DNA from: Bryobacteraceae bacterium
GTDB lineage: Bacteria > Acidobacteriota > Terriglobia > Bryobacterales > Bryobacteraceae
Reading direction: 5' to 3'
Assembly: GCA_036272835.1 (NCBI GenBank)
Contig: DATAXY010000025.1
Coordinates: 334,155 to 374,154 of the forward strand
DNA length: 40,000 bases
Shown piece by piece: positions 13,132-40,000 of this stretch. The notes beneath the pieces are model-generated. The model searched no databases and was not told the origin of the DNA. It saw only the letters and a program-made list of their open reading frames with translations. A program made the position numbers and the translations under genes. Numbering within the stretch: the first letter of the stretch is position 1; the number at the start of each line of letters is the position of its first letter.

Positions 13132-13207
13132 TGGTGGACGGCATGGGGCTCGAACCCACGACCCCCACGTTGCGAACGTGGTGCTCTCCCAACTGAGCTA
13201 GCCGCCC
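13132..13207 (-). tRNA. tRNA-Ala (anticodon CGC), CCA encoded
   Basis: Reverse complement reads GGGCGGCTAGCTCAGTTGGGAGAGCACCACGTTCGCAACGTGGGGGTCGTGGGTTCGAGCCCCATGCCGTCCACCA. It folds as a cloverleaf with the G3:U70 alanine identity pair and anticodon loop TTCGCAA. Confidence 0.9.
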
Positions 13208-27764: not shown

Positions 27765-28076
27765 TCACCCATGTCCTCTCCCGCGCAAATTGCCGCCAAT
27801 CAGGCCAATGGGATAGGAGATAGAGAGCTGCAAAACTGCCCTCCCCCAGAGACCCTGTGCGACCGCTTCTTTAATTTTGCCCTCGGCCCCAATCGAAACC
27901 AAACACCCTGCCAATTCGGCCTTCAGAAGCAAAGATCGAGGTTCAGAGGCCTTGAAATCCGCTCTCAACAGAAGGTCGCGCGTTCGCCTTAAAGCTTGTG
28001 AGTATTCCCTAGCATCCAGCAGGGCGGTCACTTCATTTAGGAATTCTCGGTCCTCGGGGCTGATCGCTAACCTCAT
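27765..28076 (-). CDS. Hypothetical helical protein; the ORF reads outward through the left TIR into host DNA
   Basis: The 103-aa ORF begins inside the element (MRLAISPEDREFLNEVTALLDAREYSQALRR..., protein-like and TPR-like). Its last ~30 codons are encoded by the TIR, the TSD and host sequence. No recognised family. Confidence 0.3.
   Translation of the reverse strand: MRLAISPEDREFLNEVTALLDAREYSQALRRTRDLLLRADFKASEPRSLLLKAELAGCLVSIGAEGKIKEAVAQGLWGRAVLQLSISYPIGLIGGNLRGRGHG
27771..27809 (+). pseudogene. 5' fragment (13 codons, MSSPAQIAANQAN) of a host hypothetical gene interrupted by the casposon
   Basis: It joins in frame to 39617.. (AKLSTGPRTEEGRARSSHNAV...) once the element and one TSD copy are removed. 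The rest of track ORF 27771..27992 is read-through into the TIR. Confidence 0.8.
27796..27809. repeat. Target-site duplication, left copy (CCAATCAGGCCAAT; 15 bp if G27810 is included)
   Basis: Identical to 39603..39616. The following G is shared by the TSD and TIR interpretations. Confidence 0.85.
27810..27846. repeat. Left terminal inverted repeat
   Basis: GGGATAGGAGATAGAGAGCTGCAAAACTGCCCTCCCC, compared with the reverse complement of 39566..39602, GGGATAGGAGATAGAGAGCGGCAAAACTGCACCCCCC. The first 19 nt are identical and 34/37 positions match ungapped. Confidence 0.9.
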
Positions 28077-28362
28077 ATTGCTTCGGGTGGCACTAAAGCC
28101 CTTGAAGGTTCTTCTCGATGTTGACAGTTGTACAATTCGGAAAGAGAGTCAATGATCCTGATGGTTGGGACAACGACTCGCAGGTTCACATGCAGTGCAG
28201 GCCTTAGAGTTGGTTGTCGTCGTAAATGTCAAACGCTCCTGCCCCTACGTGTTGATCACGAGTTTCCCGAACAATAAGAAAGTTATCGAGTCCTGGATAA
28301 GGTAGAGATGTTCGTTCGCCTTCGCGATACTCCACTCTCTTCGTTTCGCAGGTAAATGCGTC

Positions 28363-29205
28363 TCAGCGTTCAACCAACAAAACCCCTTCCTTCATCCTAA
28401 AGGATGGATCGATGTTTTCCCTAACGAGATCGCACACGTAATTTGCGGCTCTTGTCATCTCAAGCACGAGGTCGTGAATCAAAGCTACATGGTATTCAAA
28501 TTCCAAGAGAAGCCCGGTATAGACATCATGTTCGTATGGCCGTCCCTTATAGAATGAAGCCGTTATCAGATATTCGTTAGGCCTATCCGCATCGTGCTCA
28601 GAATGCCTTGCGAACACCAGTAGAAGATCATTCACGACGAATCGGAATGACTCAAGGCTGTGACGTATCCGTTCATATCGAGTTGGCCAAACTCTCGATA
28701 ATAGCCAGACGCAGAGGCCTCGAAGGCTTTCTAAAAACTCAATGGCGACGATGGGTGTTGGAGCTAGTAAATATGAGGTATAGCCTAACCAATTATCTAA
28801 TCCGGCTCTCTTAGCCCAATCGTCAATGTATGCCGCCCACCTCTCATCGTCGGTCTGCTTCTTACTATCCCAATTGAGTGAGCTGCGAACCCACCCTTCG
28901 TGACTGCACTTAATTTCCTTCAGCTTTTGAACAGTAAAATAATTCTCCTGATCATCGACCTGCTTATGATGGATATTGCACAGCAAAATCAAATTTTCGT
29001 ACTTATTTCTCTGATCGAGGGGAAGGTCAGAATCGCCACGTGGTCCGTCGAGTTGCTCCGCTACGACGTGGGCCGCTTCTCCGACCAATGATGGATCGTC
29101 AGTCTCTGAGGGATCGATTACGAGGTCACGGCGGCACTCAGCTAGCGAGCAACGAGACGCTGCTCGCCCCCAGAGCATACGATTTGTCCTTACGCTGATT
29201 GACAC
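28363..29205 (-). CDS. HNH endonuclease domain protein with an uncharacterised C-terminal domain
   Basis: 280-aa ORF (GTG at 29205; alternative ATG at 29178). HNH core: C..AEC....GEAAHVVA....GPRGD....NKYENLILLCNIHHKQVD. Confidence 0.75.
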   Translation of the reverse strand: MSISVRTNRMLWGRAASRCSLAECRRDLVIDPSETDDPSLVGEAAHVVAEQLDGPRGDSDLPLDQRNKYENLILLCNIHHKQVDDQENYFTVQKLKEIKCSHEGWVRSSLNWDSKKQTDDERWAAYIDDWAKRAGLDNWLGYTSYLLAPTPIVAIEFLESLRGLCVWLLSRVWPTRYERIRHSLESFRFVVNDLLLVFARHSEHDADRPNEYLITASFYKGRPYEHDVYTGLLLEFEYHVALIHDLVLEMTRAANYVCDLVRENIDPSFRMKEGVLLVER

Positions 29206-29272
29206 TGAGTTTCACCACGCAGGTTTCGAGCGTTCAGCCTCCAACAGCGTCGGATGAGTGCTCGCCATTGAT

Positions 29273-30430
29273 CTAAGTTTCTCGCTTTGCCACGTCCGGT
29301 ACACTGTGGGCAGCATCACTACTCGACTGCTCGCAATTCCACAATTCAACTGAATCTGTATAGTAATATTCGACGTTAATTGCGTTCCCGGAATTCCATT
29401 GCCGAACCGCAGAAATTATTTTTGTGTTTGCTTCGCTACCAGGATCACCGTGTAATCCAACAAACACGCATCGGAATGAGGGCGCGAACATTCGTTTCAT
29501 AACGTGAGCATCTGAAGGCCCAAGGCTGTGACCAAACGTAAAAAGGATACTCCCGCTGCGGGAGAAGGTTGTGAGGCAGTACCTCAAGTACGGATGCCGG
29601 GTAATCTGCTGCATCTTTTCAGCGCTTGTTCCCTCGCAAACAAATAGGGGAGCTCGGCCCTCTCTGATGTTCATCTTGATTTGATCTACAAGTTTGCCAC
29701 CATCAGAGGTGATTTTCGTCAGTATTCCGTTTGACTCGAACAGGTGAAGCCCGCCGTGCAAGAAGTGCACATTCTGTTGGTATTGGCGGGTCTCCCGAAA
29801 AGTGTCCCTCCACTCAAGTCTTCCCTCTAAAAACTCTGACCTTCTGAAGCCGTCGCTCCATCCCTCCCAGCCAGCCGTAGCGAGAGTCCAATATAGAAGC
29901 AGATCGTAGTTCAAGGTGAAAACGTGGCCAAAGTTCTTCAGAAAGGAAAGCGTCGACGCGTAAGCATCATCGGGTATAACGAACACGTGATCGGGATGCC
30001 GTTGGGCAACAGCCCTAACCAGCGCATCTTTTATGAAATCACTATCTACTCGAAACTTCTCGCCGATCTGCAACCCGTGCTCGGCGTGACATGTCGCGAG
30101 CTTGCTTGCGATATCCAGATAGCGGATGACCTCTTCGAAATCTTTGGTACCGAGAATCTCAAACGCTTTTTGGGCTGTTGGAGCTAAGCTGAAATCGGTA
30201 TCGGTGAACAAGGCATTGTAGCTGAAAATGCTCTTATCCCAAGCGATACTGAATCCATTGCCGAGAAGAAGAACACATCTCTCAGGGGGTCCATACTCTT
30301 TGGCCTTCTGAAGAGCCCGGTCAAACGAAACGACCTCAATCACAATAAGACATAATACAGTACGCTTGTTGTTGGGCAAGCCCAAAGCTTCAAAACGCTC
30401 GCCTAATACTTGCCTCCTCAATTCCTCCAA
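29273..30430 (-). CDS. DUF4917-like protein (SIR2-like / DHS-like NAD-binding superfamily candidate)
   Basis: 385-aa ORF with LLLGNGFSIA, FTLNYDLLLYW, VHFLHGGLHLF and FGHSLGPSDAHV, which I recall as the DUF4917/SIR2_2-type motif series. It overlaps the polB stop by 13 bp; the start may be internal. Confidence 0.55.
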   Translation of the reverse strand: MEELRRQVLGERFEALGLPNNKRTVLCLIVIEVVSFDRALQKAKEYGPPERCVLLLGNGFSIAWDKSIFSYNALFTDTDFSLAPTAQKAFEILGTKDFEEVIRYLDIASKLATCHAEHGLQIGEKFRVDSDFIKDALVRAVAQRHPDHVFVIPDDAYASTLSFLKNFGHVFTLNYDLLLYWTLATAGWEGWSDGFRRSEFLEGRLEWRDTFRETRQYQQNVHFLHGGLHLFESNGILTKITSDGGKLVDQIKMNIREGRAPLFVCEGTSAEKMQQITRHPYLRYCLTTFSRSGSILFTFGHSLGPSDAHVMKRMFAPSFRCVFVGLHGDPGSEANTKIISAVRQWNSGNAINVEYYYTDSVELWNCEQSSSDAAHSVPDVAKRET

Positions 30431-33400
30431 GTGTTCGACTCTTCCCCGGTAAACCCATCCGAACTGCTTTGCGGCAGCAGTAACCGCTTAAGCAAATTCT
30501 CATTCGTCGCATGCGGTCTGCTCCTTCCAGCCCTCAGATCGATCAGCGCACGACGAGAAAGCCCGCTCACTCTCACTAGTTCCGAGAGCGCGATCTTCTT
30601 CAGTGCGGGCAAGATCTGCATGGTCCACTCGTCTCGACGTTGATCAACATATTCCGTGTACACATCTCCCTCGTCCCGGACCATGCCAGATTCAACATCT
30701 TCGAGACGATTCGATTCTTTGCCGATGTAGATGATCCTGTCGATTTGGATGTGTCTGCGCTGAAGTAGACCGACCGTCTGTTTGTCGCAGACAATGCCCT
30801 GGGTATCGGCACACTTCGATTCAGGGTGGTACTCGTATTCGGTCAGAATATCGTTGTACGTTTTGACGCGTGCCATTGTGCGTGTTCCGTGCTGGCCTTC
30901 GGTGATGATGCGATACGTGTTGCCGCTGTACTGGTCGATCCATTTTGCCTTGTGCCATTTATTCGGGTCGGTTTCGTAGGGCGCAATCAGATGGAAGTGA
31001 TTTGGATCGGCTTCGGTTGGATGTCCGAAACTATCAACTTGGGCTGTCAGCAAGAAATTGAAGGGCTTGATCTGCGCTCCGTATTGCTTACCGGCGTTGA
31101 AGGTTGAGAATGGCTTCATGACCGCAGGACTGCTGACGGTAACTCGCCCGACTGCTGGCATATGCCCAAAGCTGAGAGCCAATGTTGGCAACCCGAAATG
31201 CTCTCGAATAATGTTGAGCCACACTTGCCCAATCCAGTCGCGGTCTTCATCACCGAGATTCATCGGATTAAGCAGATGTCCAAGGCCGTGCTCTTTCCAT
31301 CCATTGTCTTTGCTGTTGGCGTTCCGGCGCAACAAAACCGGGTCTCCGGTTTCATCCTTTAGAAATAGGGCGTATCGCTTTGCTGAGATCCCAAAACAAT
31401 AGATTTGTCTCTGCTTCTTCGATACCGGATCGAAGTTCACATCCTCGATTTTGAGCACGGAACCGGATACAAGCGTTGCGTCGTATGTGTTCGGTGCTCT
31501 GAACGTTTCGGCGATCTGCCAGACCTGCTCCCATGAGAGAGCCTGAATTGCCGGTTTGCCGTCCTCAGTTGCCAGCGATCCGCCGGGACACGGCACAATC
31601 CCACCGTGTTCAGTGGCGACGATCGCCATCGAGTCCGTGTCTTCCATGGCATACGTTCCGCTAAGGCTCGTGACACTGTGCTCAAGCAGGGCAAGCATGA
31701 GACGCGCGGCCCCCGTGATCAGTGACGCCATCGGCGAAAAGAAGTATTCTCCGGGCTTTTCGACGCGTGCATTTTGGCTTGAGAATGGCTCAGGGTCGAT
31801 TCCGTGGCAGATTGTGGATTTCTCCTTTTCCTGCTCATCGCGATTCATTTCAGCGTAGATCCCGTAACTGGTCGCGTTCGCTAGTACTTTGAGAAATTTG
31901 TTCAGCGGGTTCTCGGACGGTATCTGCTTCCGCTGTTCAATTGCAACCTTGAAGAAATCCTGTTTCGCCGGGTTGATCTCCAATTCTCCGCGCAGCCGAA
32001 TTGGTATCAGCCCAGGCAAAGTACCTTTGGGAACAATACGAAACGCATCCAAAATCGTAGGTATGCGTCCAGTCAGAATTACCGATGCAACGACATCAGG
32101 TAATGATAACCAAATCGCGTGCCGGTCCGGATTTTCTTTGTCTCCGTAAAGATAATTCGATCCGACCTGCCAATCCTTGCTGACATCCGAATATTTCGCT
32201 CTCGTTGGGACAATATCGCCATCCGGGACAATCTTCACGAACGCTGTGAGGAACTTCCAGATTTCCGGCTGAAACAATTTCTCTGGCGTGATCGCTGAGA
32301 GCCAATCGCTGATTTCGGCTGCGCAATTCTCGACAACTTCGATTTTCTTAGCAATGACGAACCGCCACAATCCCATGAGACTGTTAACCGTTGGATACAT
32401 CGACAGAAAATCCACGTACACAACGGGCACAGAAACTTTCCGAATATGAACGCTGGTGCGGCCCCCGAAGAATGCAGATTGCGCATATCCAATAAACTGT
32501 TTCGGAAACTCCGGCTGACGCTTCAGTATCGGTGGAATATTCATCGCCTTGAGATGTGCCTTACCGATCGACGCTGGCGAATATGCCTTGGTCTCCTGAA
32601 GATCGATCGAATGCCAGTCGTATTCTTCGAGAAGCTTGAAAAGCAGCCCCGCAGTTGCGCGAACGTCCTGCCGGTTGTATTCGATGTATTCGTCAGAAAC
32701 AACTCCGTGACCAAGAGCCTTTGATTTTCCTGCCTTAACTCCAAAATCTTTGCAAGCTCGCTCCAAACTGTAGTTCTTGTCGGTGAGTGCAAAAGCGAGT
32801 GTTTTCAAATCCAGGAAATGCCCCCGGAAGATATATCCTTTCTCGGGTTTGCCCGTTGTTGAGCCTTCTGGAATGAGATCCACAAAGTCAGGATTCTTTC
32901 GCGCGGTGAATCCCTTCAATGCGCTCTTGCTGTTGATGTGCTTGATTCCGAGCCTGGGTAGAAACGGATTCCGTTTGTTGGCGTTGGTTTTGTCTTGATA
33001 CGTATCGAGACCCAACGAGAAGCCACCCTCGAACGCACCTCGGGCTGTTGTGGCGTCAGACGCGATCCGGGAGAGGTCAAAGGGCAAATTGAAGCCGACA
33101 ATCAGGCCCCTGGTTTTGTATCCGACTTGATAAAGCTTGCGAATGAATTGGCTACGGGTGAGGAGCAGCAGCTTTCGTGATTGTCTTGCGCCTGTGTCTT
33201 GCGTGTTCTTTGCCACGTATTCTTTGAGAGTCGAAAGTTCGATTCCGGTTATGTCATCACCAAAGAACAGACCTTCTTCGACGCAATACTTGCCGTCGAA
33301 ATATCGATAGCTGCCAAAGATTAGGCTTTGTATCTGGTCAGTTCTGGTTTCCGTATCGAATACAAGAAAGCCGGTTGGACGTTTCCTGGACGCTGGTTTC

Positions 33401-33486
33401 TTCGGCTTCTGCTTATCGTGCTTTTTCGCGTCAGGGTAGACTCGGACCGCGATGTTCAGGGGTGTTGGGTCGGACTGTTTAATCAA
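30418..33486 (-). CDS. polB: Family-B DNA polymerase with 3'-5' exonuclease domain
   Basis: 1022-aa ORF with a TTG start. Exonuclease motifs: ExoI FDTET (D44, E46), ExoII NLPFD (N133-D137), ExoIII YNRQD (Y270-D274). Polymerase motifs: A YVDFLSMYPT (D359), B KVLANATSYG (K533), C YAMEDTDS (D616, D618). Confidence 0.92.
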   Translation of the reverse strand: MIKQSDPTPLNIAVRVYPDAKKHDKQKPKKPASRKRPTGFLVFDTETRTDQIQSLIFGSYRYFDGKYCVEEGLFFGDDITGIELSTLKEYVAKNTQDTGARQSRKLLLLTRSQFIRKLYQVGYKTRGLIVGFNLPFDLSRIASDATTARGAFEGGFSLGLDTYQDKTNANKRNPFLPRLGIKHINSKSALKGFTARKNPDFVDLIPEGSTTGKPEKGYIFRGHFLDLKTLAFALTDKNYSLERACKDFGVKAGKSKALGHGVVSDEYIEYNRQDVRATAGLLFKLLEEYDWHSIDLQETKAYSPASIGKAHLKAMNIPPILKRQPEFPKQFIGYAQSAFFGGRTSVHIRKVSVPVVYVDFLSMYPTVNSLMGLWRFVIAKKIEVVENCAAEISDWLSAITPEKLFQPEIWKFLTAFVKIVPDGDIVPTRAKYSDVSKDWQVGSNYLYGDKENPDRHAIWLSLPDVVASVILTGRIPTILDAFRIVPKGTLPGLIPIRLRGELEINPAKQDFFKVAIEQRKQIPSENPLNKFLKVLANATSYGIYAEMNRDEQEKEKSTICHGIDPEPFSSQNARVEKPGEYFFSPMASLITGAARLMLALLEHSVTSLSGTYAMEDTDSMAIVATEHGGIVPCPGGSLATEDGKPAIQALSWEQVWQIAETFRAPNTYDATLVSGSVLKIEDVNFDPVSKKQRQIYCFGISAKRYALFLKDETGDPVLLRRNANSKDNGWKEHGLGHLLNPMNLGDEDRDWIGQVWLNIIREHFGLPTLALSFGHMPAVGRVTVSSPAVMKPFSTFNAGKQYGAQIKPFNFLLTAQVDSFGHPTEADPNHFHLIAPYETDPNKWHKAKWIDQYSGNTYRIITEGQHGTRTMARVKTYNDILTEYEYHPESKCADTQGIVCDKQTVGLLQRRHIQIDRIIYIGKESNRLEDVESGMVRDEGDVYTEYVDQRRDEWTMQILPALKKIALSELVRVSGLSRRALIDLRAGRSRPHATNENLLKRLLLPQSSSDGFTGEESNTWRN

Positions 33487-34015
33487 CTGAGTCGCCCCCC
33501 TTGCGAAGTTTCTGCCACCATTTCGCCCCCAACATTTCAGTCATCTCCGCATCGAGCTTTTCAAGATTTTCCGGCTGTATCGAGAGAAATCGCTCGATCA
33601 AGTAAGACTGCATGTCAACGAATCCTCGAATACTTGCAGCTGCCCGGCGAAGTGGACTTTGATCGGGATTTTCCAGGGTTCGTGTTGGCCAGTCTTTCTG
33701 TGCTCGTGTCAATTCCGCCCGATGATCGTTGACGGGTATTTCGACTGTTGCCGGATGGTTGTTCTTGCCAGCAACATGATGTTTGTCCATTGTTGTTCGT
33801 CCTTTCTTTTTACGAAGACAAGCTGCGCACATGACCGAGTGTTTTCTCCGTGTCAATGCTTCAGGTCTCCTCTCGCCGCAATGACATGCAGCATTCTCAC
33901 CAACTCTTCTTTGCGCAATTGCTGTTCGCTGCGCTGCTTTGATGGGATCTCGTCCTTGTCGGTTTGAATTCACTTCAGACGCTCCTCGCATACACAGATT
34001 CGAAAGAAAGCACAC
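33479..34015 (-). CDS. Zinc-ribbon / HNH-like small protein, translationally coupled to polB
   Basis: 178-aa ORF (GTG at 34015; the ATG at 33991 is more plausible). Contains CHCGE...CAAC cysteines and DKHHVAGKNNHPATVEIPVNDHRAEL (H-N-H-like spacing). Its stop overlaps the polB TTG start by 8 nt (GTTGATTAA). Confidence 0.4.
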   Translation of the reverse strand: MCFLSNLCMRGASEVNSNRQGRDPIKAAQRTAIAQRRVGENAACHCGERRPEALTRRKHSVMCAACLRKKKGRTTMDKHHVAGKNNHPATVEIPVNDHRAELTRAQKDWPTRTLENPDQSPLRRAAASIRGFVDMQSYLIERFLSIQPENLEKLDAEMTEMLGAKWWQKLRKGGDSVD

Positions 34016-34613
34016 CGGCAGAACCGAGGCGATTCAGTTCCTTTAAGTCGGTAACGAGTCGAATCTCGTTTCCATTGGCGTCCTTCACTTTTTTGCCTCT
34101 AAATTTCTTCAGAGCGGAACTGTCGCCAGTTCTGAGGTACTTCTGAACGGCGTCCATGTATCGGCCTACCGTGCTGCCGTATTTGGAATTGCGAAGTGAA
34201 ACTTCCTGCTGGCCTTCATTTGATGGAATTCGCATCACTCGAAGAAGGCTGTCTGTTTTGGATACCGAATACCGTCCATTCGGCTGCTTCTTGATGGCGC
34301 GGCCAGCCCAACGAACAACGGTTTGAGACTTAACCCCCGCTTCTTTAGCAGCCTTGCTGAGAGACAACCGATCAGTTCGCATCTTGGCGATTGTCCGAAG
34401 GACCTTACTCCAGGTCTCTTGGTCCGCTTCAGGTTTTGCGAAGAAATCGTCCCGAGTTCGGGGCACGGAAGGGGCGGGACGCCGTCCACGGCTTATTTTT
34501 CTCTTGCGCCTCACGACATGAGCATGCAGGTTTGTTTTGGCAACAACAACAAAAAGTTTGTGTGTCGAAATTGCCAGGAACAGGTCGGCAGCAGTGATTG
34601 GCATCGTTGCCAA
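33975..34613 (-). CDS. Hypothetical DNA-binding protein (HTH: LSLSKAAKEAGVKSQTVVRW)
   Basis: 212-aa ORF. The N-terminal ~40 codons look non-coding and contain a palindrome, so the true start is probably further in (a GTG near 34530). The basic RRKRKISRGRR stretch precedes an HTH-like segment. Confidence 0.4.
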   Translation of the reverse strand: MATMPITAADLFLAISTHKLFVVVAKTNLHAHVVRRKRKISRGRRPAPSVPRTRDDFFAKPEADQETWSKVLRTIAKMRTDRLSLSKAAKEAGVKSQTVVRWAGRAIKKQPNGRYSVSKTDSLLRVMRIPSNEGQQEVSLRNSKYGSTVGRYMDAVQKYLRTGDSSALKKFRGKKVKDANGNEIRLVTDLKELNRLGSAGVLSFESVYARSV

Positions 34614-34619
34614 TCACTG
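34592..34619. promoter_or_regulatory. Perfect 12-4-12 palindrome (candidate operator) in the divergent control region of the element
   Basis: CAGTGATTGGCA-TCGT-TGCCAATCACTG. It lies 21 nt upstream of the ATG of ORF 34640 and over the annotated 5' end of ORF 33975..34613. Confidence 0.5.
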
Positions 34620-34639
34620 TTGGACAATAGTTTCTGGCA

Positions 34640-35242
34640 ATGGTTGAAGATGGAATGACAGACGAGACCCTACGAAAGCTAAAGGAGCAATTCCAGGAGC
34701 TAAAGCATACATTCACGAGTCTCAGCGGTTCGTCGGATTACTCCGTAGCCATCCAAGAGCTTCAGGCACTCACAAAGGATATGCCGTTGCTGGCACCGTT
34801 CCTGCGGGACGCAGCAGAACGGATGATGCCTGAAGCGACCCGAGGCAATACCGTACGCCCCGAAATGTTCACTCGTTATTTAGCGGCGATTGACACAGAG
34901 GAAAAGTTTGATCTAGTCCTTGCAAGTATGACGGAATCTGATGGTCAGCAGCTAAGCAGGCACTTAACACAGATGCTAAAGAGCGTTCTTCCCAACATTA
35001 GGGAGGACGGATTAGAAACTTTAAAGAAATTACCCCATCGGCGCGGTGGTGGAAGAAAGAAGGAAGTCGATGATGAACGAGCAGAACGGATTTGCAAAAA
35101 AATCGCAAAGCATATTGAGTCTGGCGTAAGTATTGGCGACGCGCAACGACGGGTTAGCAAGGACGAACGTCTAAGCGAAAGAACCGTTAGAGAAGTCTGG
35201 CAAAACCGAAAGAAAAGACACTTGGTGACTGAGAACAGCTAA
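34640..35242 (+). CDS. Hypothetical protein with C-terminal HTH-like segment
   Basis: 200-aa ORF upstream of cas1 on the same strand. The C-terminus GVSIGDAQRRVSKDERLSERTVREVW resembles a resolvase/Sigma70_r4-type HTH. No family recognised. Confidence 0.45.
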   Translation: MVEDGMTDETLRKLKEQFQELKHTFTSLSGSSDYSVAIQELQALTKDMPLLAPFLRDAAERMMPEATRGNTVRPEMFTRYLAAIDTEEKFDLVLASMTESDGQQLSRHLTQMLKSVLPNIREDGLETLKKLPHRRGGGRKKEVDDERAERICKKIAKHIESGVSIGDAQRRVSKDERLSERTVREVWQNRKKRHLVTENS

Positions 35243-35344
35243 CCAGCGATGACCTGGAAACGTCAACTATTTGAAGGAATATCGGGCCTGCAGCTTGTTC
35301 CACCAAGCGGCAAGCCCTAACCAGCACAGGAGGGTTAAGCTCCC

Positions 35345-36934
35345 ATGAAGGCTACAAAAACCGTAGCGCAGTCGTCGCGCGTCCGCAAGTTAACGCCGCG
35401 ACCGCCAGCAAACATCCACTTCCGACGCTTGTTCGCACCCAGCCATGGTGTCGTGGTTCTTGTCGGATTCGGGATCAAGGTTCGAATCGATCGAGGCCAT
35501 CTAATGCTAGAGGAGGGCATCGGCGACGATCGCCGTGTAGGTCGATTCCCGCGTGTCCATCATGGCCTCAGCCGCGTAGTGGCGATCGGTAACGATGGCG
35601 TAGTCTCGTTGGCAGCGTTGCAGTGGCTTGCCGATCAGAAGATAGCCCTTTCGATGTTGGAACGGGACGGAGTTGTTCTCTGCTCGATAGGTCCCATTGC
35701 GGCCTCAGACACGAGGTTGCGCCGTGCGCAAGCGTGTCTGTCTCATTCACCCTCAGCCGTTTTGATTGTTCGGGAATTGATCCGCCAGAAAATCGCCGGT
35801 CAGGAGAGCGTTGTCCGAAACAAGCTCAACAAAACGAGCGCGGCTCACGTGATCGCCAGATTTCGGAATCAACTCATGACCGCAGACAGCATCGATACCA
35901 TCCGGATGATCGAGGGACATGCAGCGGGTGTTTACTGGACAGCCTGGCAGGATGTCGCGATTCGATTTCCGAAGAGCGATCTTCCGAAAATCCCGGAACA
36001 CTGGACCCAATTTAGTACCCGTCGTTCTCCCATCTCTGGCACGTCGCGGCGATCGCCGAACCCGGTAAACGCTATTCTGAATTACCTCTACACGCTCCTG
36101 GAATCGGAAACACGGCTGGCCATCACAGCGCTCGGACTGGACCCCGGCTTCGGGCTGCTTCACGTCGATCAATCGACCCGTGACAGTCTCGTCTATGACT
36201 TGATGGAACCGATTCGACCCAAGATCGACGCCTACGTTCTCGATTGGATACTACGGACACCCCTCAAGCGCTCATGGTTTTTCGAAGAACGTGATGGTTG
36301 TTGCCGTCTCATGTCCGACATGACCGCTTCTCTAGCAGACACTACGAGAACCTGGGCTGAAGAAGTAGCGCCGATCGTCGAATGGTTTGCGCAGTCGCTT
36401 GCGTCCTCAGCCCAGGAGAGCACTCGGGTTCGGACACCGGCAACACGCCTCACTCAGCGCAGTAGATGCGAAGGACAGGGCGTTAGCGCCCCCGCCGCGA
36501 AAGAACCAAAAACTCAGCCGAACGTTTGCACCATATGCGGAACCGCTGTCTCACCGAACAATCGCTACTGCCATGAGTGCGGCCAGCAGGAATCGGGTAA
36601 GCGGCTTGCCGCAGCCCAAGCCATGAGTCTGGATGCCGCAAGGACACCAGAAGCGCTGGAGAAGAAATCAGCGGCAATGAAGGACCATCGGAACGCTCTC
36701 AGGAATTGGCAACCGTCGGATCTGCCGGAATGGTTAACCGATGAGGTTTACATCGCCAAAATTCAACTCGCCCTTGAGCGTTTTTCTAAAGCGGAAATTG
36801 CCAGAGCCCTCGGAATCTCCAAAGATTACGTCTACGAAATCGTGCGTGGCGATAAGGTGCCACATAAACGGCATTGGGTGAAGTTGGCGGAATTGGTGGG
36901 GATGAGCTCAGAAGAGGGGTCGAAGAGACGGTAA
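35345..36934 (+). CDS. cas1: Cas1 homologue (casposase-type integrase) with C-terminal zinc ribbon and HTH
   Basis: 529-aa ORF with AGGAGG ~10 nt upstream of the ATG. Cas1 motifs: IEGHAAGVYW (E190), NPVNAILNYLYTLLESE, GLDPGFGLLH (H273), YDLMEPIRP (D286/E288). C-terminal CTICG-x10-CHECG and FSKAEIARALGISKDYVYEIVRG. Confidence 0.9.
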   Translation: MKATKTVAQSSRVRKLTPRPPANIHFRRLFAPSHGVVVLVGFGIKVRIDRGHLMLEEGIGDDRRVGRFPRVHHGLSRVVAIGNDGVVSLAALQWLADQKIALSMLERDGVVLCSIGPIAASDTRLRRAQACLSHSPSAVLIVRELIRQKIAGQESVVRNKLNKTSAAHVIARFRNQLMTADSIDTIRMIEGHAAGVYWTAWQDVAIRFPKSDLPKIPEHWTQFSTRRSPISGTSRRSPNPVNAILNYLYTLLESETRLAITALGLDPGFGLLHVDQSTRDSLVYDLMEPIRPKIDAYVLDWILRTPLKRSWFFEERDGCCRLMSDMTASLADTTRTWAEEVAPIVEWFAQSLASSAQESTRVRTPATRLTQRSRCEGQGVSAPAAKEPKTQPNVCTICGTAVSPNNRYCHECGQQESGKRLAAAQAMSLDAARTPEALEKKSAAMKDHRNALRNWQPSDLPEWLTDEVYIAKIQLALERFSKAEIARALGISKDYVYEIVRGDKVPHKRHWVKLAELVGMSSEEGSKRR

Positions 36935-37126
36935 AGCCCGGTAAAGGGGAAACCGGCGATATATAATTCTCGGAATGACTCGGCTCAAGTGGGACAAATC
37001 ACAGCGTCTTGGCTAAATGATTGCGAGAATGATTAGAGGGCCAGTTGACGTTGCGAACCACGGAATTGCGGTGTTCAGCCGGGCGTGTCAGATGTTGGCC
37101 ATCATAGTTGAGCCTGTTTACTTGAA

Positions 37127-37876
37127 GTGGCGAAAGGAGGTCGCAACAATTTGATTGCGGGCGAGAACGATGTGCGTTCGAGGCCGGTTTACTCGATACC
37201 CGAGGCAGCCGGATACCTAGGCATACCCATCAACACCCTGGTTGCTTGGACCGTGGGGCGACGAAAGGCGAATAGTCCCAACTTTTATGTGCCGATACTA
37301 AGCTTCGTAAATCCGGATCTCAGGAAGTTGTCCTTTTATGATCTTGTAGAAGCGCAGATTCTTCGTGTCGCAGTCGAGCGTAAGGTACCCCTGAGGCAAT
37401 TGAAGCGAGGATTGGCATATCTCAGAAGTAAGCATCCGCTTAACCCTAGACCACTGCTCACTTATGATTTTCTAACTGAGGGCAAGTATTTGTTGGTCGG
37501 TGGGATGCTTGGGTCTAAAGAAAAGGACCAGGATGCCCTCGTAAACGCCTCGGTGCACGGGCAACTCGAAATGGCCAGCGTAATTGGAGAACATGTCAGC
37601 CTTCTGCTTAGCGGCATCGATGAATCTCTCAAATTCGTCGCGCGCGACCACGGCTCTAAGTTGCCTCATACGTTGTTTCCGAAAGGCGGACACCACTTGG
37701 TTTCGATCACGCCAGGAGTGGTTTCCGGTCGCCCAGCTATCGAAGGTACACGCATACCAACTAGGATCATTGCTCAGCGATTTCGTGCTGGTGAAGACGC
37801 CAAGACATTAGCGAAGGACTATCGTCTTTCAAAGGAGAAGATTGAGGCGGCGATCCAATACGAAGCAGCCGCATGA
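37127..37876 (+). CDS. VapB45-like antitoxin candidate: N-terminal MerR-like HTH plus C-terminal DUF433 domain
   Basis: 249-aa ORF (GTG at 37127; the TTG at 37151 is better placed, 10 nt after AAGGAGG). YSIPEAAGYLGIPINTLVAW is an HTH. The C-terminal ITPGVVSGRPAIEGTRIPTRIIAQRFRAGEDAKTLAKDY matches the DUF433 pattern. Confidence 0.7.
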   Translation: MAKGGRNNLIAGENDVRSRPVYSIPEAAGYLGIPINTLVAWTVGRRKANSPNFYVPILSFVNPDLRKLSFYDLVEAQILRVAVERKVPLRQLKRGLAYLRSKHPLNPRPLLTYDFLTEGKYLLVGGMLGSKEKDQDALVNASVHGQLEMASVIGEHVSLLLSGIDESLKFVARDHGSKLPHTLFPKGGHHLVSITPGVVSGRPAIEGTRIPTRIIAQRFRAGEDAKTLAKDYRLSKEKIEAAIQYEAAA

Positions 37877-38369
37877 TCCTCACGTTCTTTATCTGGACGA
37901 GGACATAAGCGGTAATAAGTTGGCATCCCTGCTACTGCAAGCACGAATAGCGGTGAAGAACTATGAATCACTGCTTAGGAAAAATAAGAAGGTTCCGGAT
38001 GGTCGTGTGATTCTCACTAGCGCCAAGGCTAACTTTGTACTCGTAACGACAGACAAGAGGATGGAGGCCGAATGGGTCGAGGACATCATCATGAACAGGG
38101 CAAAGGTGCTCCTTTTAACTGATGAGTGCGGTGGCCCGATACATTGGGCGTCAGCACTAATTTGCGGACAGTCAGCCTGGACAAGAGTTCTTCTTGATCA
38201 TCATGGCGAGCCTCTGACCATGAGGGTTAATAGAAACGGCTCCGTTACAAAAGTGACGGGAGAAAAAGAACTCAGGGAGCGTAGCGATGCTCTGTTTCAG
38301 TCAAACGTTGTTCGTGCCAAGCGGAGCGGGGAGACGTTGCCTCGCCGCGTAATGAAAAAACACGCGTGA
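37842..38369 (+). CDS. DUF5615 / PIN-like (VapC45-like) toxin candidate
   Basis: 175-aa ORF overlapping the upstream gene by 35 bp. LYLDEDISGNKLASLL...DGRVILTSAKANFVLVTTDKRM fits the D-E..D..T.D acidic pattern of DUF5615. Confidence 0.55.
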   Translation: MRRRSNTKQPHDPHVLYLDEDISGNKLASLLLQARIAVKNYESLLRKNKKVPDGRVILTSAKANFVLVTTDKRMEAEWVEDIIMNRAKVLLLTDECGGPIHWASALICGQSAWTRVLLDHHGEPLTMRVNRNGSVTKVTGEKELRERSDALFQSNVVRAKRSGETLPRRVMKKHA

Positions 38370-38561
38370 AAGTGTGCACTAGATGAGGTCAACCCCTAAG
38401 CCCATGCGGATTACACCTGAGTTAACTTCACTCTGTAAAAGGCAACCACCAGCCCGAACTGATGAACGCAGCATTCCGTGCTGTACTGAAACTTCCGCAC
38501 GCAGCAGTATGAAGGACGCAGCAAGGCGGGAGCGAGCAAGCGCGAAGAAGAAGTCCGCCTA

Positions 38562-39401
38562 ATGCGAACTATCAGCGAAGTTATCAGTGAAATCCGCTTT
38601 TCGCTTTCTCGTGCCCTCAGCTTGGTTCATAAGAATGAGACGCTTCTAACGTCACAGCTGGAAGAACATGAAGACCAAATAGCCAAGCGAGAAGTTGAGG
38701 CTGAAATCGAATTTTTTGTTAACCAAGCATTTAGGCGCGCTGTTGTAATGGCAGAGGTTAGAGGATTAAAGAGCACCCGTAGCTCCATTGAACGACTTTA
38801 TAAAGAAGCGCAAGGTCAGCTTTCAAGTTTCGAAGACGTTCATGGGGAGATCTATCTTAAGTGGCAGCCACGGCTAGAGGAGTTCTTAGACGCATTACAG
38901 ATTGCGCTAGGCGAGCCGAGTTCGGCACTAATAACGAGAGAGATTATCAGCATACTAAAAGAGACTCAATATAGCATCACGAGACCAATATATTTCGGCA
39001 GAGTTCCCGAGAAGGAAAAAGACGTGCATGATCGGATCGAAGCGATTTTGCGATGTATATTTCCTGACATGAAGCATAAGCCTCACGTTGGCACGTTCTT
39101 GAAAAACTTCGAGCCGGACACTGGCCTTCCTTCGATTAAGACACTCCTGGAATATAAGTTTGTCAAGAGCGACAACGAGGCCCGGACTGTCTTAGATCAG
39201 CTGTTTTCGGATGTCGTTGGTTATTCATCCCCTGAGTGGAAAACACTCATCTGCGTTATCTATGAAACGAAGCGTGTCTTTTCGGAGAAGCAGTGGAACA
39301 CCGAGGTGAAGTCGAGACCGGCTTTTCAGGATTCGGGAGTTGCCGAGAACGTCCAGGTAGTTGTAATCTCTGGAGATTCCCCCCGGGGTTCGAAGGCGTA
39401 A
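38562..39401 (+). CDS. Hypothetical protein with C-terminal PD-(D/E)xK-like nuclease motif
   Basis: 279-aa ORF. The N-terminal half looks like a coiled coil. The C-terminal FEPDTGLPSIKTLLEYKFVK fits D-x(n)-E-x-K of the restriction-endonuclease-like fold. No family recognised. Confidence 0.4.
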   Translation: MRTISEVISEIRFSLSRALSLVHKNETLLTSQLEEHEDQIAKREVEAEIEFFVNQAFRRAVVMAEVRGLKSTRSSIERLYKEAQGQLSSFEDVHGEIYLKWQPRLEEFLDALQIALGEPSSALITREIISILKETQYSITRPIYFGRVPEKEKDVHDRIEAILRCIFPDMKHKPHVGTFLKNFEPDTGLPSIKTLLEYKFVKSDNEARTVLDQLFSDVVGYSSPEWKTLICVIYETKRVFSEKQWNTEVKSRPAFQDSGVAENVQVVVISGDSPRGSKA

Positions 39402-39565
39402 CCCAAACGATCTCTTGTGCATCGAGTAGCGGCATCGAAACACCGCAAGACGTTTGCCTGGCGCGTTTTTACGATCACCGCAAATCTGATTCGCCAATTC
39501 TCGGATTAACAATTTTGAGCACCTGGCGTTCTAGGTCTTTTTAACTAGCCCACTCGATTCGGATT

Positions 39566-39602
39566 GGGGGGTGCAGTTTTGCCGCTCTCTATCTCCTATC
39601 CC
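39566..39602. repeat. Right terminal inverted repeat
   Basis: Its reverse complement matches 27810..27846 at 34/37 positions, with the first 19 nt identical. Confidence 0.9.
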
Positions 39603-39616
39603 CCAATCAGGCCAAT
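39603..39616. repeat. Target-site duplication, right copy (CCAATCAGGCCAAT)
   Basis: Identical to 27796..27809. Confidence 0.85.
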
Positions 39617-40000
39617 GCCAAACTATCTACGGGTCCTCGGACCGAAGAGGGCCGAGCCAGATCCTCTCACAACGCCGTCCGCACGGCGCTGACCGGCCGC
39701 ACCGTTCTGCTGCCCACCGATGATGTCGAGGAATACAAGAAGCACGTCGCCCGCTTCGAAGCCGAGTTCAAACCCGTCACCGAGCGCGAAAAAGAACTCA
39801 CCCAGAACATCGCCGAGACCCAGTGGCGCATCGATCGGATTTTCTCCCTCGAACAAGGCATCTACGCCGTCGGCCGCGTCGAATTCGCCGATCTCTTCCA
39901 AAACCAGGATGAGGCCGTCCGCGCCGCCATGATCGACGTGAAAACTCTGACCACCTATCAGCGCCAGCTCAACAATCTCTCGCTTCAAGAGGAACGTCTT
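39603..40000 (+). pseudogene. 3' portion of the interrupted host hypothetical gene (continues beyond the window)
   Basis: The frame from 39605 reads NQAN AKLSTGPRTEEGRARSSHNAVRTALTGRTVLLPTDDVEEYKKHVARFEAEF... and is open to the window end. It has no start codon of its own. Track ORF 39623..39988 (-) is its antisense shadow. Confidence 0.8.

Follow-up and report, generated by a model that had tools for sequence, protein, structure and literature searches.

A Cas1 homolog with a C-terminal zinc ribbon and HTH as the probable casposase of a family 3 casposon in Acidobacteriota

Described casposons and the placement of the window Cas1

Casposons, self-synthesizing transposons that encode a Cas1 integrase and a family B DNA polymerase between TIRs flanked by a TSD of about 14-15 bp, are regarded as ancestors of the CRISPR adaptation machinery. 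To our knowledge, only two archaeal casposases of family 2 and a single one of family 1 have been characterized biochemically. In family 3 casposons a zinc-binding domain and an HTH are fused to Cas1, and in AceAut-C1 both domains are located at the C-terminus (Krupovic et al. 2014, PMC4046053). [quoted passage not shown] From family 2, the casposon of M. mazei ends in TATATCCC-3' and is flanked by a TSD of 14 bp, and deletion of the HTH renders its casposase inactive (Hickman et al. 2020, PMC6977970). The A. boonei casposase acts site-specifically, reading the leader motif TCAAATC upstream of the TSD together with the leader-TSD border (Beguin et al. 2016/2019, PMC5137440, PMC6614799).

We compared these systems with a Cas1 homolog encoded in a 40-kb stretch of bacterial DNA, referred to as the window in its entire length. 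A BLAST ranking placed the Cas1 of AceAut-C1 at the top (41.5% identity, 212 bits), with the comparison covering the core only because the published alignment does not contain the C-terminus. All five family 3 reference casposases ranked ahead of family 2, family 1, and CRISPR Cas1; the family 2 references, at 25-30% identity, ranked below every family 3 reference. In the Cas1 tree (NJ, Poisson-corrected, bipartition bootstrap, 298 columns), the window family formed a clade with AceAut, SacSpi, and StrAlb at 95% bootstrap, with AceAut nested within the window family. The grouping of all family 3 members with the window family reached a bootstrap of only 63%, while the family 2 casposases formed a clade of their own (100%) with the window protein outside.

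With AceAut-C1, which has a 15-bp TSD, the window casposon shares a bacterial host and the succession of Cas1 core, zinc-binding domain, and HTH. The earlier note on this DNA, made from the sequence alone, had proposed that the zinc ribbon and long linker may mark a distinct subgroup; given that this architecture was already described for AceAut-C1 in 2014 (Krupovic et al. 2014, PMC4046053), it defines no new one. The elements themselves differ, AceAut-C1 being a 20-kb element with 602-nt TIRs and helicase/ATPase cargo that was reported as intergenic, whereas the window casposon has 11.8 kb, 37-nt TIRs, and defence-like cargo and is found inside the 5' end of a gene. In fact, all family 3 insertions reported up to 2016 were intergenic, a descriptive feature of the family from which the gene-interrupting window casposon departs. 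NitAL212-C1 from Nitrosomonas sp. AL212, likewise of family 3, encodes a 32% identical Cas1 that, like the window protein, combines a C-terminal HTH with a zinc-binding domain; the latter lies N-terminal to Cas1, in contrast to the C-terminal one of the window protein. NitAL212-C1 has a TSD of 14 bp and a TIR that begins with GGGGTATG..., as do the TIRs of many window-element relatives.

The M. mazei casposase (family 2, 6OPM) has the same catalytic residues as the window Cas1 at a core identity of ~25%. Likenesses extend to the element ends: the left TIR of the window resembles the MetMaz-C1 TIR GGGATATAGGTAAGTCAAAAAAACGC, the M. mazei casposon TIR begins with the similar GGGATATAGG..., and a terminal TATCCC-3' is common to the right TIR of the window and the M. 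mazei casposon end in 6OPM. A further trait known from family 2, an HTH on the Cas1 C-terminus combined with a similar HTH on PolB, is also found in the window without membership in that family. The M. mazei enzyme, whose C-terminal HTH is essential for activity, possesses neither a zinc ribbon nor a long helical hairpin, and its C-terminal extension comprises 60-70 residues compared with ~200 in the window protein. Its casposon resides in an archaeal host and targets tRNA genes or intergenic sites. CRISPR Cas1 proteins (A. fulgidus 4N06, type I-C 8D3L) share the two-domain fold and the catalytic E/H/E(D) residues with the window Cas1, whereas they partner with Cas2 at CRISPR repeats and lack the zinc ribbon/HTH extension.

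Element, target gene, and relatives

With a probability of roughly 90%, we consider the protein encoded at 35345..36934 to be the casposase, i.e., the integrase, of a family 3 casposon (27810..39602) that is complete and was integrated recently, a reading that draws on element anatomy, conserved catalytic residues, domain architecture, affinity to family 3, and site-specific insertions. The element comprises 11.8 kb and is bounded by TIRs and a TSD (Table 1), the latter being 14 or 15 bp long as its final G can be assigned to either the TSD or the TIR. The window contains exactly two copies of the 18-nt TIR core, and none of 100 shuffled sequences gave two matches. Within the casposon the GC content is ~50%, compared with 56-58% outside, where the flanking genes are of bacterial type (e.g., TonB_C). 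In an empty-site reconstruction, deletion of the casposon and one TSD copy yielded an uninterrupted host ORF with the insertion point near its 5' end at codon ~13. No Pfam family was found for this interrupted gene, whose protein family is ~215 aa in length. In the two closest relatives (loci L001 and L002), the insertion is situated at the same point in homologous genes.

Table 1. Coordinates of the casposon, its genes and domains, and the interrupted host gene within the window.
Feature	Position	Strand	Basis or remark
Interrupted host gene, 5' fragment (MSSPAQIAANQAN...)	27771..27810	+	Empty-site reconstruction
Left TSD, CCAATCAGGCCAAT(G)	27796..27810	.	Exact direct repeat of 39603-39617; abuts TIR
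Left TIR, GGGATAGGAGATAGAGAGCTGCAAAACTGCCCTCCCC	27810..27846	+	37 nt, 92% complementary to 39566-39602
Cargo, N-terminal HNH effector-type endonuclease domain	28363..29205	-	PADLOC, Pfam
Cargo, DUF4917 / PDC-S21 candidate defence protein (SIR2-like)	29273..30430	-	Pfam, PADLOC
Family B DNA polymerase (PolB), 1022 aa	30418..33486	-	Pfam, PHROG, motifs
PolB C-terminal HTH, homologous to casposase HTH	30463..30639	-	HHalign, BLASTP
Conserved core gene, Cys4 + HH..N..NDH protein	33479..34015	-	HNH-like by motif only
Conserved core gene orf212, 212 aa	33975..34613	-	Syntenic in 61/80 loci
Small HTH protein upstream of cas1	34640..35242	+	Pfam HTH_32, E=1.1e-4, under family cut-off
Casposase gene, Cas1 homolog	35345..36934	+	529 codons + stop, ATG start
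Cas1 core, residues ~34-331	35444..36337	+	N-terminal beta + catalytic alpha domain; E190, H273, D285, E288
C4 zinc ribbon, residues 391-413	36515..36583	+	C395, C398, C409, C412, all invariant
Long alpha-helical hairpin, residues ~410-454	36572..36706	+	Joins zinc ribbon to HTH
XRE/lambda-repressor-type HTH, five helices, residues ~466-527	36740..36925	+	Pfam and fold
Cargo, overlapping pair: DUF433/HTH_66 protein and 175-aa protein	37127..38369	+	Toxin-antitoxin-like arrangement
Cargo, DpnII/MboI-like restriction endonuclease domain	38562..39401	+	Pfam, PADLOC
Right TIR, 3' end ...CTCCTATCCC	39566..39602	-	Pairs with left TIR
Right TSD, CCAATCAGGCCAAT(G)	39603..39617	.	Exact copy of left TSD, 15/15; abuts TIR
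Interrupted host gene, 3' part (...NQANAKLSTGPRTEEGRARSSHNAV...)	39603..40000	+	Continues past window end

Acidobacteriota genomes contained more than 512 related loci, and the Cas1-zinc ribbon-HTH family amounts to about a thousand 50%-identity clusters. Neighbourhoods were compared for the best 80 of these loci. Among them, 74 have kept the PolB gene beside cas1 and 32 show intact TIRs along with TSDs of 12-16 bp. By title, 79 of the 80 belong to Acidobacteriota lineages, among which Tunturiibacter psychrotolerans is a cultured member; only L047 differs, being titled Candidatus Micrarchaeota archaeon. In T. psychrotolerans X4BP1 the element lies at ~5,879,100-5,891,850 of NZ_CP132941 (1381-14092 in the coordinates of locus L023). 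Locus L001 was considered as a simple pair of empty and occupied sites and rejected on account of its composite make-up: besides a TIR stub that stands alone, it contains a target fragment in inverted orientation next to another TIR-like end as well as one more copy of the target, which is interrupted by a premature stop. For the L002 element, the 10-kb flank did not reveal the left end. Homolog contigs of ~11.5-11.9 kb, i.e., of element size, prompted the consideration of free or excised elements, which was dropped since two such contigs end inside PolB without being bounded by TIRs.

In more distant relatives, a GTCAA(A/C) motif marks the TSD border and a conserved block lies upstream, an arrangement that the leader recognition of Aciduliprofundum boonei resembles. 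The targets differ in kind, as the A. boonei casposon uses the 3' end of tRNA-Pro while the subgroup of the window uses codon ~13 of a protein gene. A tRNA or ncRNA target was also considered for the GTCAAAC group and rejected, with no tRNA or Rfam family matched in six such loci.

An immobile, decayed remnant, in which Cas1 is kept for another role such as regulation by its HTH or has simply not degraded yet, is unlikely. The TIR arms are mismatched at 3 of 37 positions, for which reason the window copy may have lost mobility, and the target gene is truncated and has no in-frame start. Against decay, all core ORFs are of full length with intact catalytic motifs, the TSD is perfect, and the GC content of the casposon is still unlike that of the host. 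Moreover, perfect TIRs and TSDs, multiple copies in a genome, and tandem arrays are seen in many relatives.

Casposon genes and the probable casposase

The polymerase gene, located 1.9 kb from cas1, encodes all motifs of a family B enzyme, namely the exonuclease motifs ExoI (FDTET), ExoII, and ExoIII (YNRQD) as well as the polymerase motifs A (DFLSMYP), B (KVLANATSYG), C (EDTDS), and KxY. It matched a PHROG DNA polymerase (E=2.6e-8), while a sequence search of the PDB gave no match at E<=1. The PolB tail carries a second HTH: profiles of the Cas1 HTH and of this tail aligned over 59 columns with a probability of 99.4% (HHalign, E=5.4e-21), and pairwise BLASTP likewise connected the two (E=1e-4). 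Within the HHalign alignment the recognition-helix residues differ systematically, so that the Cas1 HTH and the PolB HTH may bind different sequences. The homology as such suggests that integrase and polymerase share a type of tether to element-associated DNA.

Two core genes follow between PolB and cas1. The first encodes a protein with an invariant CxC..CxxC..HH..N..NDH pattern (C43, C45, C62, C65, H78, H79, N85, N95, D96, H97) and is syntenic in 23 related loci; profile searches of Pfam, NCBIfam, PHROG, PADLOC, and PDB gave no significant HNH match for it. The second, orf212, has weak Pfam and NCBIfam matches only, and the small HTH_32 gene next to it was found in just three related loci. 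The remaining genes constitute cargo. The protein encoded at 28363..29205 matched PADLOC PDC-M68A (E=8e-32) and SAVED_HNH effector models as well as Pfam HNH_2 (E=4e-4), and its gene is absent from all 80 related loci. Its neighbor (29273..30430) is covered by DUF4917 (Pfam, E=3.6e-52) and PDC-S21 (PADLOC, E=3.9e-96). On the other side of cas1, the overlapping gene pair, which was not found in related loci, matched DUF433 (E=7e-15) and, at E=0.15 only, DUF5615. The restriction endonuclease-like protein (38562..39401) matched DpnII-MboI (Pfam, E=2.2e-12) and Aga_Helical-REase (PADLOC, E=4.4e-12).

This gene content also bears on a provirus, i.e., a Toil-like tectivirus that integrates by means of Cas1 instead of a capsid-less transposon. 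Such proviruses encode a double jelly-roll capsid protein, a packaging ATPase, and a protein-primed PolB of the tectivirus type. StrAlb-C1 and SacSpi Cas1 belong to the same 95%-supported clade as the window Cas1, and Streptomyces 'family 3 casposons' of the StrAlb type were later reclassified as Toil-like proviruses (PMC5894146). In addition, the sole Pfam match of PolB is the organellar/viral protein-primed family DNA_pol_B_2, a weak and sub-threshold hit (E=1.1e-5). We regard a provirus as very unlikely nevertheless. No PHROG of a capsid, a packaging ATPase, or another virion component was matched by any of the ten element proteins, a sequence search that a highly divergent capsid could escape, and no tblastn match to PolB was obtained in 50,697 phage genomes. 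Roughly half of the 11.8 kb is occupied by defence-like cargo, leaving no space for a virion module. While motif C of the window PolB reads EDTDS, that of its relatives is mostly CDTDS (35 of 67), the motif of the casposon PolB cluster. By type, the window PolB may belong with the polymerases of family 2 and 3 casposons or with the protein-primed ones known from family 1.

As for the casposase itself, the Pfam Cas_Cas1 match covers residues 41-325 of the 529-aa ORF (E=3.5e-45), in agreement with the earlier note's description of a Cas1 core followed by ~200 extra residues. The structure comparison proposed there was carried out on a predicted model (AF2) with a pLDDT of mostly 80-96 in the core; the M. 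mazei casposase 6OPM emerged as top PDB match by sequence and by fold (Foldseek, 6opm_A, E=2.8e-18, TM 0.76 on target). Residues E190 (35912..35914), H273 (36161..36163), and E288 (36206..36208) occupy the catalytic positions in alignments with 6OPM and 4N06 (A. fulgidus Cas1) and are invariant across 32 homologs with a lowest identity of 48%. Thus, the assigned catalytic residues were correctly described as intact, except that the supposed D286 is a numbering error: residue 286 is Leu, and the conserved acidic residue is D285 (36197..36199) within the motif YDLME. Judged by these intact conserved residues, the window Cas1 should be catalytically active.

The designation as a 'solo' Cas1 holds, too, since no CRISPR-like array, tandem repeats, or repeat family was found in the 40-kb window; profile searches detected no cas2 among the ten ORFs of the casposon. 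A CRISPR adaptation Cas1 that drifted from its array, and that would integrate spacers and not a transposon, finds points in its favor in the generic NCBIfam cas1 model TIGR00287, which scores above its cut-off (E=1.9e-34), and in CRISPR Cas1 structures scoring close to 6OPM. This origin is highly improbable and effectively refuted, as the subtype-specific NCBIfam CRISPR Cas1 models all remained far below their cut-offs, the window is free of arrays, the gene is part of a TIR/TSD-bounded element with PolB, and its product ranks with casposases ahead of CRISPR Cas1. Overall, TIRs, TSD, PolB, the match to 6OPM, and the clustering with family 3 strongly support the initial assignment as casposase-type.

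Within the ~200 residues beyond the Cas1 core, and after a low-confidence linker (residues ~356-385, pLDDT <55), a long helical hairpin joins the zinc ribbon to an XRE-type HTH of five helices. The CxxC-x10-CxxC pattern was read correctly: in CTICGTAVSPNNRYCHECG (residues 395-413), 10 residues separate a CxxC that starts at 395 from another that starts at 409. In the model of the C-terminal part the ribbon folds into two beta-hairpins (pLDDT 92), and its four invariant cysteines presumably coordinate zinc. Pfam zinc-ribbon matches were weak, as was the profile similarity to the zinc ribbons of eL37/eL40 (E~0.004). The hairpin helices span residues 410-432 and 435-454. For the HTH, Pfam returned HTH_31 (E=8e-6) and HTH_3 (E=9e-5), matched by 16 and 12 of 32 family members, respectively; Foldseek returned XRE HTHs only (HipB, SinR, C.BclI, lambda cI), with probabilities of 0.97-1.0 but at E>=0.05. 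The predicted HTH is thereby supported by Pfam and fold, although the segment assigned to it (FSKAEIARALGISKDYVYEIVRG, beginning FSKAE... at residue 480) is not the very C-terminus, being followed by 27 residues that form the last two HTH helices. A Foldseek search of the C-terminal model found no PDB analogue of the entire module.

A frameshift in sequencing or assembly could in principle have fused cas1 to a second gene that encodes the C-terminal region, a concern to which the low-confidence linker lends itself. It is refuted by the conservation seen at sequence level: a single ORF with Cas1 and CxxC..CxxC is kept in all 117 full-length close homologs and in 91 of 105 distant ones, hundreds of independent assemblies share this architecture with invariant cysteines and HTH motifs, and database protein P0001 is 100% identical across the shared region.

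Proposed mechanism and meaning

For a casposase acting on its own casposon, a mechanism can be outlined in analogy to family 2 biochemistry. Casposase, presumably as dimers or tetramers, would bind the 3' ends of both TIRs (...TATCCC-3'OH). The metal-dependent site formed by E190, H273, and E288 would then join these ends to two phosphodiesters on opposite target strands with a stagger of 14-15 bp, and gap repair would leave a duplication of 14-15 bp. The casposon's own PolB would replicate the element, and both enzymes may be tethered to element-associated DNA in the same manner through their HTHs. We infer that ribbon, hairpin, and HTH constitute a conserved, putatively DNA-binding appendage which is probably needed for the productive engagement of ends and/or target. 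A role of zinc ribbon and linker in TIR or target recognition, as put forward in the earlier note, is plausible.

The locus does not represent a new kind of protein. What appears to be new is scale and detail, i.e., more than 512 loci, an HTH also on PolB, and an insertion into the 5' part of a protein gene that is common to the two closest relatives. A broader reading, which we advance tentatively and at slightly less than even odds, is that the family 3 casposons of soil Acidobacteriota (Terriglobia) form a very large, still mobile, and apparently undescribed radiation, with a hallmark module and divergent site specificities. If this were true, no known casposon population would come near it in size; on the integrase it would be characterized by the zinc-ribbon/helical-hairpin/XRE-HTH module and on the polymerase by the homologous HTH. 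Site specificity would vary among its lineages, with codon ~13 of a conserved hypothetical gene being used in that of the window and a site with a GTCAAAC border and a leader-like block in others. The tandem stacking at target sites would then resemble leader-proximal spacer acquisition, and through Tunturiibacter psychrotolerans X4BP1, a host in culture, both the transposition of bacterial casposons and the function of the casposase HTH would become open to experiment.

In this respect, the Cas1-zinc ribbon-HTH casposase, formerly known from the single fosmid of AceAut-C1, belongs to a large family in a dominant soil phylum, with presumably hundreds of bounded elements. This family lends itself to comparisons, and perhaps to experiments in a bacterial system, on the role of the essential C-terminal HTH, and the same material bears on how target specificity is encoded and changed as well as on the cooperation of integrase and polymerase. 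By virtue of their defence-gene cargo, casposons would join the vehicles that move defence systems in soil bacteria.

An 11.8-kb casposon

The window contains an 11.8-kb casposon, bounded by terminal inverted repeats (TIRs) and a 14-15-bp target-site duplication (TSD), whose integrase is the Cas1 protein. This assignment follows from the neighboring family B DNA polymerase (PolB), a drop in GC content, the TIRs, the directly abutting TSD, a restorable host ORF, and the absence of a CRISPR-like array anywhere in the 40-kb window. Between ~28 and ~40 kb, GC content is about 50%, compared with 56-58% outside. The 18-nt core of the TIRs occurs exactly twice in the window, two matches being reached in 0 of 100 shuffles, and removal of the element together with one repeat copy restored a continuous host ORF (MSSPAQIAANQANAKLSTGPRTEEG...). 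The cargo located at both ends of the element is defence-like, and its genes were absent from all 80 related loci examined.

Features of the window element and of related loci (window positions unless a locus is named)
Feature	Position	Strand	Details
Casposon	27810..39602		
TIR pair	27810-27846 / 39566-39602		37 nt, 92% complementary
Direct repeat CCAATCAGGCCAATG	outer side of both TIRs, directly abutting		exact, 15 nt
Core gene, PolB	30418..33486	-	1022 aa; neighbor of Cas1; all exonuclease and polymerase motifs
Core gene, Cys4/HH..N..NDH protein			
Core gene, 212-aa protein			without assigned function
Core gene, small HTH protein			
Core gene, Cas1 (casposase)	35345..36934	+	529 residues
Cas1 N-terminal peptide	35345-35440		residues 1-32; M-x-A-T-K-T-V-A-Q
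Cargo	28363-30430 and 37127-39401		both element ends
Cargo, PDC-S21/DUF4917			E=4e-96
Cargo, HNH effector-domain protein			E=8e-32
Cargo, DpnII/MboI-type REase-domain protein			E=4e-12
Cargo, DUF433-containing overlapping gene pair			
Target gene segments	27771-27810 and 39603-40000		
Target gene segments, L001	219-256 and 19801-20220		left-end junction ...GCCGCCAATCAGGCCAAC joined to GGGATAGGAG
Target gene segments, L002	14491-15122		right-end junction ...CTCCTATCCC joined to CGAATCAGGCCAATGCC
Composite arrangement, L001	257-600 and 19780-19870		
tRNA-Ala(CGC) gene	13132-13207	-	
Neighbors downstream of casposase, L081	7355-11421		

Architecture and placement of the casposase

The ORF of the casposase is genuine. 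By Pfam comparison, residues 41-325 form a Cas1 domain (E=3.5e-45), and sub-threshold matches link residues 391-413 to zinc-ribbon families and residues 479-523 to XRE-type HTHs (HTH_31, E=8e-6; HTH_3, E=9e-5). The CxxC-x10-CxxC motif described in the earlier note was recovered as CxxC pairs at 395 and 409 with a spacing of 10 residues. Its terminal HTH was found as well, with FSKAEIARALG starting at residue 480, but does not form the very C-terminus, as 27 further residues follow. Likewise, the proposed E190, H273, and E288 aligned to the catalytic positions of 6OPM (M. mazei casposase) and 4N06 (A. fulgidus Cas1), while the supposed D286 is a Leu, D285 being the Asp that is conserved. Among 32 aligned homologs, reaching down to 48% identity, no substitution occurs at E190, H273, D285, E288, or any of the four cysteines, and the C-terminal signature PHxRHW...LAxLVG is conserved. 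Consequently, the C-terminal extension is a selected part of one protein, ruling out a frameshift fusion of a separate gene onto Cas1. The N-terminal peptide is conserved family-wide (M1 is invariant, A3 and V7 are shared by at least 90%), in support of translation starting at ATG 35345; the database entry P0001, 100% identical over the shared region, begins at a downstream Met. The model leaves this peptide disordered (pLDDT ~31), ahead of a variable linker.

The AF2 model of the full-length protein (pLDDT 80) best matched the M. mazei casposase (6opm_A, E=2.8e-18, TM 0.76 on target), with CRISPR Cas1 structures ranking close behind. Modelled alone with 24 homologs, the C-terminal 148 residues (pLDDT 92) are predicted to form a C4 zinc ribbon of two hairpins, followed by a long helical hairpin (residues ~410-454) and an HTH of five helices. 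Foldseek matches of this module were exclusively XRE/lambda-repressor-type HTHs (HipB, SinR, C.BclI, and lambda cI) with probabilities of 0.97-1.0 but E-values of at least 0.05, and none spanned the entire module. In a profile search, the cysteine segment was weakly similar to the zinc ribbons of eL37/eL40 (E~0.004).

Placement among known casposons was based on the Cas1 alignment from the supplement of Krupovic et al. (PMC4046053). The window Cas1 core was closest to the family 3 reference AceAut-C1 (41.5% identity, 212 bits), followed by the remaining four references of family 3, then by families 2 and 1, and finally by CRISPR Cas1. In an NJ tree with bipartition bootstrap, a clade of the window family with AceAut, SacSpi, and StrAlb received 95% support, all of family 3 plus the window family 63%, and families 1 and 2 100% each; the window family alone received 0%, because AceAut nests inside it. 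This sequence proximity, together with the best-matching fold and the location inside a TIR/TSD-bounded element, bears out the casposase-type assignment of the earlier note. Its suggestion that zinc ribbon and linker may define a distinct subgroup does not hold: considering the closest match, the nesting, and the label “Cas1-Zf” given to the AceAut Cas1 in a table of Krupovic et al. (PMC4046053), the architecture is that of the already published AceAut-type family 3 casposase. Resemblance to family 2 is seen in the TIR, as GGGATAGGAGATAGAGAGCTGCAAAACTGC of the window is similar to GGGATATAGGTAAGTCAAAAAAACGC of MetMaz-C1. The window TIR also terminates with the TATCCC-3' bound in the 6OPM structure, and its TSD is equal in length to that of the M. 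mazei casposon.

The polymerase and the question of a provirus

The C-terminal tail of the PolB encoded by the element is a homolog of the casposase HTH (HHalign probability 99.4%, E=5e-21; pairwise E=1e-4), a “Cas1-HTH / PolB-HTH” pairing also described for family 2. Recognition-helix residues differ systematically between the two, thus a common binding sequence is not implied. Motif C of the PolB reads EDTDS in the window and, among 67 relatives, CDTDS or CDTDA (35), EDTDS (21), or TDTDS (8). Variation by subgroup is apparent among casposon PolBs (CDTDS/A, EDTDS, TDTDS, MDTDS, and ADTDS). Judged from these sequences, the residue before the catalytic DTD is not fixed, contrary to what is suggested by the cluster name “PolB_CDTDS”, under which the A. 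boonei casposon PolB was placed (Kazlauskas et al.). The motif C distribution would favour a polymerase of the family 2/3 type. Pfam gave the window PolB a single, weak match, to the protein-primed family.

A later reinterpretation (PMC5894146) turned the Streptomyces “family 3” elements into Toil-like proviruses, a reading that is improbable for the window element: no element protein matched a capsid or packaging PHROG, and the PolB had no match in 50,697 phage genomes.

Distribution, target sites, and proposed integration

A word-indexed search retrieved 1269 relatives of the window Cas1, the best 120 being 48-100% identical over nearly the full length. Exhaustive searching of 50%-identity representatives, with a cutoff of E<=1e-30, yielded 998 clusters, the most divergent full-length matches being ~34% identical. 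The CxxC..CxxC pair is found in 117 of 117 full-length close homologs and in 91 of 105 distant ones, the others being mostly near-variants; the modal spacer is 10 residues. Scanning one genome per species confirmed at least 512 loci. Among the best 80 of these, 79 bear titles of Acidobacteriota lineages (Terriglobales, Bryobacterales, and Acidoferrales), one comes from the cultured Tunturiibacter psychrotolerans X4BP1, and several genomes hold more than one copy. The remaining locus, L047 (contig CAVXKJ010000003.1; Cas1 50% identity), is titled Candidatus Micrarchaeota archaeon, probably reflecting mis-binning and not an archaeal host. L035 and L069 represent a pair of cas1 genes on the same contig, separated by ~15 kb.

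PolB/HNH-like/orf212/Cas1 synteny is present in 74 of the 80 loci, and in 32 of them a de novo search revealed TIRs with directly adjoining 12-16-bp TSDs, the elements being 7.6-19.5 kb in size. Many of the relatives' TIRs are perfect, starting with GGGATAG... or GGGGT.... At the sequence level, synteny and TIR/TSD-bounded relatives provide evidence for mobility of this casposon family. Downstream of its casposase, the metagenomic contig L081 encodes a group II intron-type reverse transcriptase (RVT_1 and GIIM), a tyrosine recombinase, and an IS91-family transposase, indicating other mobile elements inside or beside the L081 casposon.

In the window, the casposon is inserted at codon ~13 of a gene for a ~215-aa protein, for which no Pfam family was found. 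The insertion point (between …IAANQAN and A(K/Q)LS(T/S)GP…) is shared with the two closest relatives, L001 and L002 (Cas1 70-71% identical), and lies close to the 5' end of genes that are homologous in all three. The target genes appear to form a multi-copy family. In the window, the right junction lacks any preceding in-frame start, leaving the target gene truncated; in L002, an in-frame GTG within the element reads through the TIR. This 5'-proximal site in a protein gene is unlike all reported casposon targets, namely intergenic regions (family 3), tRNA 3' ends (family 2), and the aEF-2 3' end (family 1). The sole tRNA-Ala(CGC) gene of the window is distant from the element and not its target. 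L001 is composite, with a solo TIR stub after the target gene's 5' end, an inverted target fragment abutting a second, diverged TIR-like end (ATGGAGATGAGATTAGAGAG), and a further target copy in which codon 6 is a premature TAG and the same 57-nt stretch, comprising upstream sequence and start, is duplicated. Copies may have rearranged with each other here, or the MAG may be misassembled.

In more distant relatives (L005, L015, L017, L021, L037, L041, L053, L062, L064, L067, and others), TSDs start with GTCAA(A/C) and are preceded by a conserved ~30-nt block (e.g., TTGATCTTACAGGCGCGAGAAAAGAAGG), which matched neither a tRNA nor an Rfam family and recalls the leader motif of the A. boonei casposase. 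Just beyond the distal TSD, L010, L017, L018, L022, L035, L037, L053, L064, L076, and L078 carry a casposon TIR of another subtype, indicating different casposons stacked in tandem at one target site, as also reported for Methanosarcina.

Anatomy, conservation, family placement, and site-specific junctions were observed directly; the mechanism we infer from the biochemistry of family 2 (PMC6977970, PMC6614799). In this view, both TIR 3'-OH ends would be presented by an oligomer of the casposase and would attack target phosphodiesters 14-15 bp apart, and repair after end joining would generate the TSD. The C-terminal HTH, preceded in the window Cas1 by zinc ribbon and helical hairpin, would be needed for activity, since the delta-HTH M. 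mazei casposase was inactive on every substrate (PMC6977970). This module may recognise the TIR or a target leader, or it may bridge dimers.

A literature search of incomplete coverage, combining casposon with Acidobacteria, Acidobacteriota, or Terriglobia, returned no description of these elements; a 2016 census listed only a handful of bacterial casposons, and one group mentioned an unpublished survey. The window protein itself belongs to an already known kind of casposase; what appears, albeit not with certainty, to be undescribed so far is the extent to which these elements have radiated in Acidobacteriota, together with the biology of their targets. The defence-like cargo, shared with none of the 80 related loci, suggests that casposons shuttle defence genes.
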